Positions 3,216 through 26,872 of a DNA stretch of 43,764 nucleotides are shown piece after piece. The notes under the pieces are model-generated. The model was given only the letters and a program-made list of their open reading frames with translations. It did not search any database and had not been told where the DNA came from. The position numbers were made by a program, and so were the translations under genes. This DNA comes from Candidatus Eiseniibacteriota bacterium. GTDB taxonomy: Bacteria > Eisenbacteria > RBG-16-71-46 > DASYSL01. The stretch lies in NCBI GenBank assembly GCA_031431875.1, contig JANPEF010000007.1, positions 1-43,764 on the forward strand, written 5' to 3'. The number at the start of each line of letters is the position of its first letter. Position 1 is the first letter of the stretch.

Positions 3216-3578
3216 CTAGTCGCGCTCCATCCGCTTGAGGAACGCGCGCATTTCCTTGCCGGCCTGCAGGTCGTTCGTGCGCTCGGCCACCGCGGTGCCG
3301 CGTCGATAGACGTCGGCCGCCTCGATGCTGCGACCGACCGCCTCGAGCGCGTTCCCCAGCTGGCGGTAGGCGGCGGCGTAGTCGGCGTCGGCGGCGATCG
3401 CGGCGGCAAACGACGCAGCCGCTTCGTCGGCGTGGCCCGCGGACGCGAGCTCGCGGCCCAGCAGGAACAGCGTCGTCGCGTCGTCGGGCGACTCGGCGGC
3501 GAGCGCGCGGAGCAGCGCGATGCGGGCGTCTGGTTCGGAGCGGTCGGTGGGAGCGACGTCATCGGGTGGATCGGTCAT
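3216..3578 (-). CDS. small tetratricopeptide repeat protein
   Basis: PDDATTLFLLGREL...DYAAAYRQLGNALEAVG...DLQAGKEMRAFL TPR pattern; GGGAG RBS 6 nt upstream of the ATG. Confidence 0.85.
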   Translation of the reverse strand: MTDPPDDVAPTDRSEPDARIALLRALAAESPDDATTLFLLGRELASAGHADEAAASFAAAIAADADYAAAYRQLGNALEAVGRSIEAADVYRRGTAVAERTNDLQAGKEMRAFLKRMERD

Positions 3579-3584
3579 GGCAGG

Positions 3585-3618
3585 CTCCCGGAGTCCTCGA
3601 TCGGGTGGACTCCGGGAG
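3585..3618 (-). promoter_or_regulatory. 12-bp perfect hairpin sequestering the RBS of the TPR gene
   Basis: CTCCCGGAGTCC (3585-3596) and GGACTCCGGGAG (3607-3618) form an inverted repeat; the SD GGGAG lies in the 3' arm on the minus strand. Confidence 0.55.
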
Positions 3619-3629
3619 TGTCGTGCAGG

Positions 3630-3823
3630 GTCGCCCCGTAGGGCAACGGCGTTGCGGGAGTCGAGGGCGCATCCCGGGGGGTCCCCACCCTGCAGTCCGA
3701 TGTGCCCGAAGGTGATCCGACCTGAGAGCGGTTGAGAAAGGCGTAGAGGCCGCTCTTCGTTCGAGTCACCAAACACCGGGAGGGTGTTGGACGGGACCCC
3801 CATCGGGATCCGCCCTCGACGAG
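3630..3823 (-). ncRNA. candidate structured ncRNA or leader: 161-nt rod (3660-3820) plus a cUACGg hairpin
   Basis: Seven stacked helices closing with GUCGAGGGCG/CGCCCUCGAC; 18-nt CU-rich apical loop; begins at the predicted sigma54 +1; no credible ORF. Confidence 0.65.
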
Positions 3824-3833
3824 GATTCCACTT

Positions 3834-3974
3834 TGCAAGCGCCGGGCCAGCTTGCCCGGAGGGCAGGGGTGGAAACAGAAGCACTTGAGCCGCAAGGGCT
3901 TGCGCTCGCACCATCCGGCGCCATCGGCGACGGAGTGCGCGTCTGTTTCCTGGGAACACTTCCGGATCGGGACA
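3834..3974 (-). promoter_or_regulatory. sigma54 promoter with IHF-like site and upstream activator-like sites
   Basis: TGGCCCG-GCGC-TTGCA (3849-3834); paired CAA-N4-TT motifs at 3879-3902; TGT-N9-ACA at 3944-3958; GATCGGGACA at 3965-3974. Confidence 0.7.
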
Positions 3975-4012
3975 GCGGCGATACACCGACCGCGCGGCCG
4001 GGGTCAAAAAAG

Positions 4013-5284
4013 TCAGGACGATGTGCGCCGAACGCCCCCGCGCCACACCAGGATGACCCCGGCGAGCGCGACCAGCGCCGCGACGACGAGCGCGTCGCGC
4101 ATCCCGGCACCGGCCGCCGGGGCTGCGCCCAGTCCGGCGGCGACGTACGCCGCCTCGCGCCGCTCGAAGATCGTCGCCGCGAGCCCGACCCCGCACAGCA
4201 TGCCGCAGTTGCGCAGCGTGGCGATCGCACCGCCGGCGATTCCGAGCTTCGCGCTCGGCGCCGCGCCCATCGCGGCACTCGCGTTGGGCGACTGGAACAG
4301 GCCCTGCCCCAGCCCGACGACGAACAATCCGGCGACCAGCGCGGCCACGCCCGTCGGCGCTCCCGGCCCGCCCACCATCCAGGCCAGGAGGAGCAGGCCG
4401 AGCGTCACCAGCGACAGTCCGATCACCGACAGGCGGCGCGTGCCCACGCGATCCGACAGGGCGCCCGCGAGCGGTGAGATTGCCAGCAGCAGCAGCGGCA
4501 CGACCACGAGCACGCGCCCCACGGCCGAGGGTCCGAGGTCGAGTACGCGCTCGAGGTAGAACGGCGTCAGGAACACCGCGGCGAACAGCGCGACGAACGA
4601 GAGGAACAGCGCGAGCGCCGCCGTGCCAAAGACCGGGTCGCCGAACAGCGCGCGATCGAACAGCGGCGCCCGCGCGACCTCGCGCCGGTCGGCCCCGCGC
4701 GCATCGCGCGGCACCAGTCGCAGGCCGAGGAAGATCGCCAGCGCGCCGATCGGCAGGTTGACGAAGAAGATCCAGCGCCAGCCCCACGCCTCGAGCAGGA
4801 ACCCGCCGACCGGCGGCCCGACCGTGAGCCCGAGGCCGACGACTGCACCGATCATCCCCAGCGCCCGGCCGCGCATCGCCGGCGGAAACGTGGCGGTGAC
4901 GATCGCGGTCGTGTTCGCCGAGACCATGCTGGCGCCCAGCGCCTGCAACACGCGCGCGGCGATCAGCGTGCCGGCCGAGGGGGCGAAGCCGCACGCCGCC
5001 GAGCCGACGATGAACAGCCCGAGGCCGCCGAGAAACAGGCGCCGGCGCCCGACCCGGTCGCCGAGCCGGCCGAACGGCAGCAGCAGCACCGTCAGCGTGA
5101 GCAGGTAGGCGAGCGACACCCAGCCGATCGTCGTCACCGAGACGCCGAACGTGTGCTGCAAGGTGGGGAGCGCCACGTTGACGATGCTCGAGTCGAGCGT
5201 CGACATGAACGTGCCCAGGGCGACCGCGGCGAAGACCGGCCAGGGAGCGACCGGGGCGGCGGGGGCGGCGGGGAGAGAGGTCAT
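4013..5284 (-). CDS. MFS drug:H+ antiporter (DHA2/EmrB-QacA-like)
   Basis: LDSSIVNVALP (motif D1), GRLGDRVGRRR (motif A), WRWIFFVNLPIG (motif H). Confidence 0.9.
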   Translation of the reverse strand: MTSLPAAPAAPVAPWPVFAAVALGTFMSTLDSSIVNVALPTLQHTFGVSVTTIGWVSLAYLLTLTVLLLPFGRLGDRVGRRRLFLGGLGLFIVGSAACGFAPSAGTLIAARVLQALGASMVSANTTAIVTATFPPAMRGRALGMIGAVVGLGLTVGPPVGGFLLEAWGWRWIFFVNLPIGALAIFLGLRLVPRDARGADRREVARAPLFDRALFGDPVFGTAALALFLSFVALFAAVFLTPFYLERVLDLGPSAVGRVLVVVPLLLLAISPLAGALSDRVGTRRLSVIGLSLVTLGLLLLAWMVGGPGAPTGVAALVAGLFVVGLGQGLFQSPNASAAMGAAPSAKLGIAGGAIATLRNCGMLCGVGLAATIFERREAAYVAAGLGAAPAAGAGMRDALVVAALVALAGVILVWRGGVRRTSS

Positions 5285-7379: not shown

Positions 7380-8021
7380 GTGCGCCGCATCGTGCTCGAT
7401 GGCTACAACGTGATCCTGCGCAGCCCCGCCTTCGCTCCCGACGAGCGGCGGGACCTCGAGGCCGCGCGCAGCAAGCTCGAGAACCTGCTGTCGTGGGCCG
7501 TGGGCTCGTTCGGTGACGTTCGCTTCGTCATCGTCTACGACGGCGCCGACCTGCCGGGTCAGGCGCGACGCCGCACCGCCGGCGTCCGCGACGCGGCCGG
7601 TGCCGCCCGCGTCGAGGTGCGCTTCTCGACGCCGCCACAGAAGGCGGACGACCTGATCAAGACCCTGGTCGACGAGTGGAGTGACGACGACGACACGATC
7701 ACGGTGGTCACCTCGGACTTGGAGATCGCCTCGCACGTGCGCGCGGCCGGCGCGACCGTCGTGTTCAGCGACCTCTTCGCCGCCAGCCTGTTCCCCGAGC
7801 GGGCCGAAACGCAGCTGCGCGACCAGATGAAGCAGGTGCGCAGCGGGAAGGCGGGGCCCGGCGGCAAGAGGCGGAAGGCGCGCGGCGGACCGCCGGCCTC
7901 ACCGACCGCCGACGGCTCGGACGCCGAGACCAAGCCCGGTCCCGGCCGCGTCTCGGACAAGGAAGCCGACGAGTGGCTGCGCCTGTTCGAGGAGCAGCGG
8001 AAGAACGAGGAGATGCACTAG
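7380..8021 (+). CDS. NYN domain (YacP/Rae1-like) ribonuclease
   Basis: IVLDGYNVI, IVYDG, ADDLI and VVTSD motifs; AGGAGG RBS before GTG. Confidence 0.85.
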   Translation: MRRIVLDGYNVILRSPAFAPDERRDLEAARSKLENLLSWAVGSFGDVRFVIVYDGADLPGQARRRTAGVRDAAGAARVEVRFSTPPQKADDLIKTLVDEWSDDDDTITVVTSDLEIASHVRAAGATVVFSDLFAASLFPERAETQLRDQMKQVRSGKAGPGGKRRKARGGPPASPTADGSDAETKPGPGRVSDKEADEWLRLFEEQRKNEEMH

Positions 8022-8434
8022 GGCGCCTGGCGCCGCGGCCGGCGTCGGACGCTCCGTGAATTCGCCTCGAGCCACCGCGCGAAGGACTCGGCATCGAGCT
8101 TGCGGGTCGACAGGGCGAGGATCGCCGCGACGGCGTCCGCTTCCCCGGCCTCGAGCCGTCGTCCGTTCAGTTCGAGAAAGAGACCCGCCAGCGTCAGCGC
8201 GACGCGCTTGTTTCCATCGACAAACGGATGACTGCGCGTGATCGCGTGGACGTAGGACGCGGCCAGCGCGAACGCGTCGGGGGCGGCGTACGCATGAAGC
8301 TGGCGCGGGGCGGCCAGCGCCGCAGCGAGGCGACCCTCGTCGACGCCGACGCCTTCCCCTCCGTGCTCGGCGATGAGCCGTTCGTGGATCGCGCGGACGA
8401 CGGACGCCGGAATCCAGCGTGGCTCACGCTTCAC
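8018..8434 (-). CDS. doc: death-on-curing (Doc/Fic) family toxin
   Basis: HPFVDGNKR Fic motif; IHERLIAEHGG; start overlaps the antitoxin stop. Confidence 0.9.
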   Translation of the reverse strand: MKREPRWIPASVVRAIHERLIAEHGGEGVGVDEGRLAAALAAPRQLHAYAAPDAFALAASYVHAITRSHPFVDGNKRVALTLAGLFLELNGRRLEAGEADAVAAILALSTRKLDAESFARWLEANSRSVRRRPRRQAP

Positions 8435-8655
8435 TTCGCCAGTTCACGCAGCGCATTGCGGTACCGGGCCATGAATCCCTCGGCCAGGTCGATCGCCTCG
8501 GCGAACTCCGGATCGTACGGGGAAAGCCGAAACCCGCCCGGAGTCTCGGTGAGGTAGATTTCGTCCCCGTCGCTCACGCGCATCGCCTTCACCGTCTCGG
8601 CGGGGAGCGTGACGCCGAGCGAGTTGCCAACCTTGCGGATCCTGAGCTTGACCAT
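8431..8655 (-). CDS. AbrB/MazE/SpoVT family antitoxin
   Basis: KVGNSLGVTLP...YRNALRELAK; AAGGAGG RBS. Confidence 0.9.
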   Translation of the reverse strand: MVKLRIRKVGNSLGVTLPAETVKAMRVSDGDEIYLTETPGGFRLSPYDPEFAEAIDLAEGFMARYRNALRELAK

Positions 8656-8677
8656 GGCGCCTCCTTGTGTAGACACC

Positions 8678-12562: not shown

Positions 12563-12630
12563 TGCAATGCCCGTGCCACGGGGGCAGCCATTGCAGCCTG
12601 CAACGAACAGACGCAGTAACAAGGAGTTAC
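12563..12630 (-). promoter_or_regulatory. sigma54 promoter with IHF-like site
   Basis: Consensus TGGCACG-GGCA-TTGCA (12578-12563); TAACAA-GGAG-TTA at 12617-12629. Confidence 0.8.
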
Positions 12631-26719: not shown

Positions 26720-26739
26720 AGCGCGAGTTGCGACGAGGC

Positions 26740-26851
26740 CCGCCTCCCTACGCCGGTGCGAACCGGATCAGGTTCCTAGGGTATGATCTCAGGCCCTCGT
26801 TGATTGCCGGATCGCGCGGTGCGCGACACGGCCACGGGCCACCCCTGACGG
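26740..26851 (-). ncRNA. TPP (THI-box) riboswitch
   Basis: Minus strand AGGGGUG...CUGAGAUCAUACCC...GAACCUGAUCCGGUUCGCACCGGCGUAGGGAG; P1 CCGUC/GGCGG. Confidence 0.95.
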
Positions 26852-26872
26852 ATGTGCGAAACGTAGCACAGA

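Follow-up and report, generated by a model that had tools for sequence, protein, structure and literature searches.

What is encoded in the 434 bp that separate two minus-strand genes in a genome from an uncultured bacterial phylum, Eisenbacteria? The interval lies in our window (the whole 43,764-nucleotide stretch of DNA analyzed) between the stop of a DHA2-like MFS transporter gene (4013 to 5278), the upstream neighbor in most loci of the sequence type that we call A below, and the start of a gene for a small TPR protein of 120 amino acids (3216 to 3578; Pfam TPR families), the usual but not obligatory downstream neighbor. A preliminary description had placed there an RNA transcribed from a sigma-54 promoter. 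The evidence assembled here makes it almost certain that the region is an uncatalogued structured RNA gene on the minus strand.

An unbranched RNA rod upstream of a TPR gene

Positions 3820 to 3660 fold on the minus strand into the long rod that had been described, 161 nt and unbranched (z about -5), and all seven of its helices, the 18-nt loop, the UNCG hairpin, and the -24/-12 motif are found in the sequence where they had been placed; homologs, covariation, and an RNA-library contig on 3655 to 3805 support it in addition to the fold. The segment 3620 to 3830 reaches -109.4 kcal/mol on the minus strand (z = -4.97) and -113.2 kcal/mol on the plus strand (z = -4.57), with 0 of 200 shuffles equally stable in each case, and the element folded as DNA gives z = -6.5. 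Both strands fold better than chance, and therefore the strand is not given by energy alone. The earlier preference for the minus strand is nevertheless upheld: counted on that strand, G-U cells outnumber A-C cells (36 versus 17 in type A, 18 versus 1 in type B), and the promoter and 3' U-tails all run in the same direction.

A CCGGYG helix common to types A and B has its 5' strand at 3779 to 3773 (rod positions 42 to 47); its 3' strand, together with the 7-nt bulge UUCGGGC (3710 to 3704), occupies 3710 to 3697, and this is the motif best kept between the types. The apical loop (3749 to 3732) is 18 nt long and pyrimidine rich, with the core CGCCUUUCUC at 3743 to 3734 and CCUU(U)C in both types. 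All of the helices proposed earlier are present, but the CACCCU/AGGGUG helix and the UNCG tetraloop hairpin (3647 to 3630) belong to the window's sub-clade only, occurring in 4 of 16 full type-A rods. A third hairpin, beyond those of the preliminary description, lies at 3618 to 3585; it is the terminator-like 3' hairpin of type-A loci, and the TPR gene's GGGAG is sequestered in its 3' arm. No conserved coding frame crosses the rod, and homolog alignments contain indels that are not multiples of three. A sigma-54 promoter mimic within the rod was considered and rejected, as it is not conserved. The bulge region (3713 to 3704) can alternatively form a mini-hairpin of 2 to 4 bp with a UUCG loop (type A) or UAUCG loop (type B), which competes with the adjoining GG-CC pairs and is a possible local switch. 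Elsewhere in the window, an AbrB-like and Doc/Fic-like gene pair (8018 to 8676, minus strand), recognized from translations, is probably a toxin-antitoxin module.

Two sequence types in one family

Twenty rod loci were recovered, from 9 of the 10 genomes of family f1 and from metagenomes, and they fall into two sequence types, A and B, that are about 50% identical. The one f1 genome without a rod has a completeness of 81%, and the TPR gene is missing from it as well. BLAST against 61 related genomes gave five further type-A copies, and a pattern scan of metagenomes gave 13 matches, 11 of them real (L039 and L046 were dropped as chance). Type B, which the type-A model does not see, was found upstream of the TPR ortholog and then by BLAST, in three genomes of two other genera. 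Common to both types are the promoter, a length of 157 to 161 nt despite replaced outer stems, the CCGGYG helix at positions 42 to 47, the UCGGGC bulge on the 3' side (46 to 50 nt from the 3' end), and the CCUU(U)C apical loop. The pattern used for the metagenome scan already fixed loop and bulge, so their invariance in those 11 copies is built in; the CU-rich loop is also conserved in the six type-A and three type-B copies obtained without a loop pattern.

Model R1 run on 151 genomes of the phylum, with 19 candidates scored per genome and type B invisible to it, gave four matches, all in f1; type-B DNA compared with 206 genomes gave three f1 genomes plus one chance match in coding sequence; and a joint core model, R2, reached a best E value of 0.029 on eight further genomes. 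A promoter-anchored pattern over 206 genomes returned six true f1 loci and six non-rods, while a pattern joining activator site and promoter returned 53 matches in 102 genomes, 42 of which were folded without yielding a new rod and 4 others of which are known loci. A looser pattern, matching in 197 of 206 genomes, was uninformative, and viral contigs held three copies of one unrelated stretch and no rod. Because sensitivity is limited and the model searches covered this phylum, with the metagenome pattern scan in addition, the range is to be read as not found elsewhere in the sequences searched. Among the families searched, the rod RNA appears restricted to one Eisenbacteria family, f1.

Even there the RNA is broken or promoter-less in two of nine carrier genomes. 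In G002 (L005, C264 near 4745), the loss of about 130 nt has removed the activator site and promoter and clipped the first rod pairs; what is left carries pair-breaking changes, has z = -2.1 versus -4.1 to -6.7 in the other 13 rods, and resembles an RNA pseudogene in decay. The rod of G004 is interrupted in its 3' arm by an insertion sequence bounded by short terminal inverted repeats, and rod and TPR gene are split across two contig ends (L008, end of C84; L023, end of C25). Assembly errors aside, these losses indicate an RNA that is conserved, yet not essential in every strain.

Selection on the structure

The preliminary description had tied its RNA reading to covariation among homologs, and compensatory changes are present in both types. 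Across 15 distinct type-A rods, 92.8% of cells are paired, versus 41 to 49% in slid controls. Relatedness of the sequences inflates the type-A covariation controls, in which 22 cells changed on both sides compare with 6.7 in shuffles (0/500) and 7 pairs with two-sided change are not clearly more than in shuffles (47/500). The three type-B sequences are 98.8% paired, with four two-sided pairs. Of the 31 positions that are paired in A and B alike, 18 to 20 have both partners changed between the types when the rods are placed in register from their 5' ends; a G-run/C-run swap at positions 20 to 24 is among these, and register is the sole basis of outer-stem homology between A and B. In pairwise comparisons, the rod shows higher identity than the upstream spacer every time (11 of 11) and higher identity than TPR-gene DNA in 9 of 11, an advantage over the gene that applies within the window's type (A); against the relative G001, the rod is 97%, the TPR gene 84%, and the upstream spacer 62% identical. 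Taken from sequence comparison, these results indicate that the rod structure is under selection as RNA.

A predicted sigma-54 promoter and a candidate activator

The enhancer-dependent sigma-54 layout proposed for this promoter is borne out among homologs, which keep both the -24/-12 motif and an upstream half-site. The motif (3849 to 3834, minus strand; predicted +1 at 3823) lies 13 to 17 nt ahead of the rod in 19 of 20 loci, the exception being G002, where it is deleted; its background frequency in the genome is 3.1e-5 per nt, and the chance of finding it at that placement is about 1.6e-4 per locus. Farther upstream, the inverted TGTTCC/GGAAACA at 3958 to 3944 (minus strand) is a predicted site for a sigma-54 enhancer-binding protein. 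The TGT..ACA-type sites suggested earlier are conserved in part, namely the downstream half of 3958 to 3944 (-135 to -121) only. This half-site, G(T/A/G)(A/G)ACA, is found in all 19 homologs that have the promoter, 88 to 101 nt ahead of the -24 box, whereas shuffles average 0.65 and reach 3 at most, by a motif definition taken from the very loci scored; its positions form two classes about 10 bp, i.e., one helical turn, apart. The IHF-like sites are not established: an AT-richer block lies 20 to 60 nt upstream of the -24 box (a possible IHF site, 3904 to 3879 in the window, minus strand; AT fraction 0.44 to 0.48 versus 0.17 to 0.30 in flanking bins), but the best match to an IHF consensus averages 6.5 of 9, barely above the 6.1 of shuffles.

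The genome encodes rpoN, with 20 PF00158 matches and about 19 activators. On contig C35 of the window's genome (G000) there is an 800-amino-acid protein that joins TPR, PF00158, and HTH_8 domains. The promoter beside it bears GTAACA/GAAACA-type half-sites like those of the rod in 6 of 6 family genomes and ranks third among intergenic sigma-54 motifs scored by the rod-promoter matrix. Judging by these common motifs, the TPR-type activator is the likely inducer of the rod promoter.

The activator locus itself (C35:4367-7320, L251; homologs L252 to L256) continues with a sigma-54 promoter and a second RNA of about 300 to 335 nt, with a strong terminal stem and conserved in 6 of 6 family genomes; its G000 copy has no Rfam match. 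On contig C106 of the same genome, a sigma-54 motif at 102169 (plus strand) with an AT-rich upstream region precedes an hsp20-dnaK operon (names read from translations), which suggests sigma-54 control of heat-shock genes there; matrix ranking gave no support for a link between this promoter and that of the rod. In the window, an intergenic sigma-54 motif TGGCAC-N5-TTGC at 12578 (minus strand) stands ahead of a small exported-protein-like gene (genes 12487 to 11738), and similar promoters precede the ortholog of this gene in G004 and G007.

Transcript and 3' end

One freshwater-sediment metatranscriptome contains a 151-nt contig (depth 8.2) on 3655 to 3805, with two differences from the window, both of which are G001 alleles. 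Since it comes from one study, lacks strand and ends, and may reflect DNA carry-over, it lends weak support to expression; missing RNA-contig cover of the flanking genes (run X1) is not evidence either way, because a relative's genes may fall below the 85% threshold. Type-B rods have a U-run immediately 3' of the rod, and type-A rods have a hairpin 15 to 50 nt downstream, with a U-rich tail in most copies. In the window's genome, the U-tail of this hairpin is missing and the hairpin is not called as a terminator; together with the buried ribosome site of the TPR gene, this makes read-through possible. A hint to the role of the TPR protein may come from another family, in which a small-TPR-like domain is apparently fused behind a YgfZ/GcvT-like domain (L066, C357 of G070; name from reading).

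Comparison with known RNAs

The rod has no Rfam match, by gathering or E-value thresholds, in window positions 3500 to 4100 or at five homolog loci; a clear match to a known family was one of the outcomes that would have refuted the preliminary description. That description had seen no hallmarks of SRP, RNase P, or tmRNA, and the true copies of these are indeed elsewhere (C128, C115, and C50, respectively). Its suggestion of a 6S-like decoy, in the canonical form, fails because the rod lacks a central bubble and the genome has a separate 6S at another locus. The 6S model RF00013 does not match the rod at E ≤ 10 in 3500 to 4100 or in the genome-wide scan, nor does it match at the five homolog loci; pairing of the 5' and 3' ends closes the rod, as in 6S, and the largest two-sided internal loops range from 1x7 to 4x4 across 12 rods, versus the large central bubble of 6S. 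The separate 6S-like RNA (L002, C140:26607-26790) follows the end of a zapA-like gene (named from its peptide) and scores 31 bits against a cut-off of 46.4, so that standard annotation would miss 6S in this genus; a copy in G001 lies at C221:11021-11204, and the separate 6S RNAs of relatives score 43 to 61 bits, above the cut-off in two.

Other classes were considered and set aside. A CsrB/RsmY-type sponge is contradicted by the absence of unpaired GGA in 12 of 12 rods, though CsrA is present in 5 of 5 genomes. Bacterial Y RNA genes usually adjoin a Ro60/TROVE gene; PF05731 was found in 0 of 5 genomes, with the control positive in 2 of 14. Membership in the cuckoo/alpha-r14 group was rejected, the RNA being one rod with a CCUU(U)C loop and not two to four hairpin modules with CCUCCUCCC loops. 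The RNA does show the accessible CU-rich loop of CU-loop sRNAs, open in type A and partly open in type B, and its sequence has the features of a sigma-54-dependent sRNA gene, with a -24/-12 motif at the right distance, an upstream site, and rpoN and activators encoded in the genome. Two further structured RNAs came to light. In family f3, a conserved non-Rfam element of about 250 nt (L225 to L246, 22 copies, e.g., G018 C20 near 223040) follows a TTGAC-type promoter and contains a perfect 13-nt Shine-Dalgarno sequence, a 14-codon frame, and a terminator hairpin; nhmmer did not find it in G000, and none of the 10 f1 genomes contains the exact 13-mer. In the window, a TPP riboswitch with a long insertion in one helix lies at 26728 to 26856 (minus strand; 63.4 bits).

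GlmY and GlmZ are multi-hairpin RNAs. The available portions of PMC7073468, PMC4152352, and PMC3045617 present them, with RapZ, as sigma-54 linked, one pairing with mRNA and one serving as a protein decoy, the two modes weighed below for the rod; the rod RNA has no Rfam match, and no rapZ is among the genes called in the rpoN-hprK-ptsH operon. According to the accessible text of PMC13350326, the CU-rich single-stranded loops of Listeria LhrC RNAs pair with AG-rich ribosome-binding sites, largely without Hfq, and this CU-rich loop logic and Hfq-free model are where the likeness lies; LhrC RNAs differ in having two short stem-loops, several CU motifs, and multiple copies, whereas ours is one 160-nt rod with one loop, single copy and sigma-54 driven, without an Rfam or sequence match. 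In cuckoo/alpha-r14 RNAs, as portrayed in the part of PMC4615179 at hand, compensatory changes likewise replace the stems around a preserved pyrimidine loop motif that resembles an anti-Shine-Dalgarno sequence, but these RNAs are built from hairpin modules, and the single rod carries a second conserved motif in its bulge. With 6S (RF00013; PMC8876501, in available part) the rod RNA shares a shape closed by 5'-3' pairing and the conservation of structure and length above sequence; it is shorter than 6S, lacks the bubble, and has no model match at E 10. The Myxococcus RNA Pxr, so far as excerpts of PMC5684412 describe it, is similarly lineage restricted with a predicted sigma-54 promoter and upstream enhancer region, but it has three stem-loops and adjoins its activator gene, and the rod RNA has no adjacent activator. 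Full-text searches of mostly open-access main texts returned no description of the rod RNA; "Eisenbacteria" together with "sRNA" retrieved one paper, which in its available part concerns CsrA. Large motif catalogues, such as PMC5737381 going by its accessible part, could list the rod RNA outside Rfam.

Proposed mechanism and rival explanations

We tentatively favor, with slightly less than even confidence, a small RNA that acts in trans and whose CU-rich loop pairs, with no need of Hfq, to AG-rich ribosome-binding sites. Activation of the promoter would fall to an enhancer-binding protein, most likely the 800-amino-acid TPR-type activator on C35; transcription would start near 3823 and end, in type B, at the U-run that follows the rod and, in type A, at the 3' hairpin, read-through into the TPR gene being possible in the window's genome. 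Pairing of the 5' and 3' ends would protect the product, a nuclease-resistant rod of about 160 nt, the CCGG helix with its UCGGGC bulge would probably contact a protein, and the loop would nucleate pairing at GAAAGG-type ribosome-binding sites and thereby repress translation, the last being the weakest step.

Shine-Dalgarno pairing had been among the functions first suggested, and the loop itself fits the idea, but no target stood out. The unpaired probability of the loop is 0.93 to 0.99 in nine type-A rods and 0.41 to 0.45 in three type-B rods, where the counterpart of the core CGCCUUUCUC is GACCUUUCC. Its CCUUUCU is identical to the final seven bases of the 16S rRNA tail motif of this taxonomic order, as read from two sister-family genomes (the f1 assemblies yielded no 16S end), and Hfq was not found in 5 of 5 genomes searched. 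GAAAGG sits at -20 to -11 in 54 of 67 occurrences near predicted starts in G000, a concentration at the Shine-Dalgarno position that is partly circular because the gene caller rewards such words. Target scans covered one whole genome with our own gene calls: none of the 14 occurrences of the 10-nt loop complement lies near a predicted start, and across 2,775 predicted start regions the best loop duplex (-21.7) does not surpass those of shuffled loops (mean, -23.8). Candidate partners were rejected in turn, ptsH with a site kept in only 3 of 10 family genomes, pilN with a site that does not co-vary with the type-B loop, activator leaders with no match, and bulge complements with 3 near starts versus 2.1 expected. 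By eye, the loop co-varies with a site in the RNA next to the TPR activator as though the two paired, yet cognate pairs are not better than non-cognate ones, 12% of 1,200 background windows do equally well, and the site is buried in a stem. A long RNase III was also set aside, as it is not specific to f1.

Several features sit uneasily with loop pairing: the 5 to 6 loop bases common to both types are short for a seed, the type-B loop is about half self-paired, a length-conserved rod exceeds the needs of a pairing RNA, the longest cross-type motif is the bulge with the CCGG helix and not the loop, and expression rests on a single 151-nt contig. An RNA that binds protein as decoy, sponge, or scaffold, its bulged helix docking for example a form of RNA polymerase or another regulator and its loop secondary, is possible if somewhat doubtful, and only a little less likely than loop pairing. 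The fixed length in spite of replaced outer stems, the fixed places of helix and bulge, their standing as the longest common motif, and the empty mRNA target search all speak for it, as does the existence of rod-shaped protein-binding RNAs such as 6S and Ms1 (PMC8876501 and PMC9130861, in the parts available); it has to contend with the missing central bubble (largest two-sided internal loop ≤4 nt on the shorter side in 12 rods), a separate 6S, the lack of unpaired GGA for the CsrA that is present, the absence of Ro60/TROVE in 5 of 5 genomes, and no candidate protein partner co-distributed with the rod. Loop pairing and protein binding are not mutually exclusive. It is conceivable, though unlikely, that the rod is a signal-induced decoy of a new class that is produced at fixed length under a TPR-sensor sigma-54 activator, docks a large machine through its bulged CCGG helix, and displays a copy of the 16S 3' tail. 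Such a decoy would be a bubble-less counterpart of 6S for the sigma-54 polymerase or, alternatively, a mimic titrating factors or mRNAs that recognize the anti-Shine-Dalgarno end of the ribosome.

The regulatory leader that had also been suggested would be a structured 5' region of the TPR gene controlling translation or read-through from the sigma-54 promoter. The rod is directly upstream of that gene in 16 loci (7 of 9 carrier genomes, 9 of 11 loci from metagenomes), the GGGAG at the TPR start is hidden within the 3' hairpin, which has no U-tail in the window's genome, and CUCCCGG in the rod is able to pair with the same hairpin arm. The reading is weakened, however, by three loci in which the rod is apart from the TPR gene, including G008, where promoter, rod, and U-run face a convergent gene, and L043, where an intact promoter and rod precede another gene. 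In addition, type B lacks the 3' hairpin and has its U-run directly after the rod, TPR orthologs in four genomes of three other families have neither sigma-54 motif nor rod upstream, and both alternative pairings leave the ribosome site closed. We regard a leader as quite unlikely; separation from the TPR gene argues for a stand-alone gene, which fits best. A DNA-level or mobile element (MITE/REP-like or cruciform) or a chance GC-rich fold could account for folding on both strands and as DNA and for the insertion sequence in the G004 copy, but the rod is present once in a 98%-complete genome, without the dispersed copies of MITE/REP-like elements that the preliminary description had named as a danger, and it keeps stable synteny, a G-U over A-C asymmetry, a conserved promoter and activator site, a fold that decays after promoter loss, and an RNA-library contig, all of which makes such an origin extremely improbable. 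Some mechanism outside pairing, protein binding, a leader, and DNA-level or chance origins seems very unlikely.

Significance

The narrow range of the rod RNA, one family with some strains able to dispense with it, limits its general importance. What is new is an uncatalogued family of structured RNA from an uncultured phylum, with a promoter, an activator site, and a candidate activator, in genomes where searches found no Hfq. Long single rods of conserved length usually bind protein machines, as 6S and SRP RNAs do; the rod RNA has neither a 6S nor an SRP hallmark, yet it has a promoter of the enhancer-dependent type. Either reading, loop pairing or protein binding, would amount to testable signal-controlled riboregulation in this family, through an unusually large anti-Shine-Dalgarno scaffold or through a new protein decoy.
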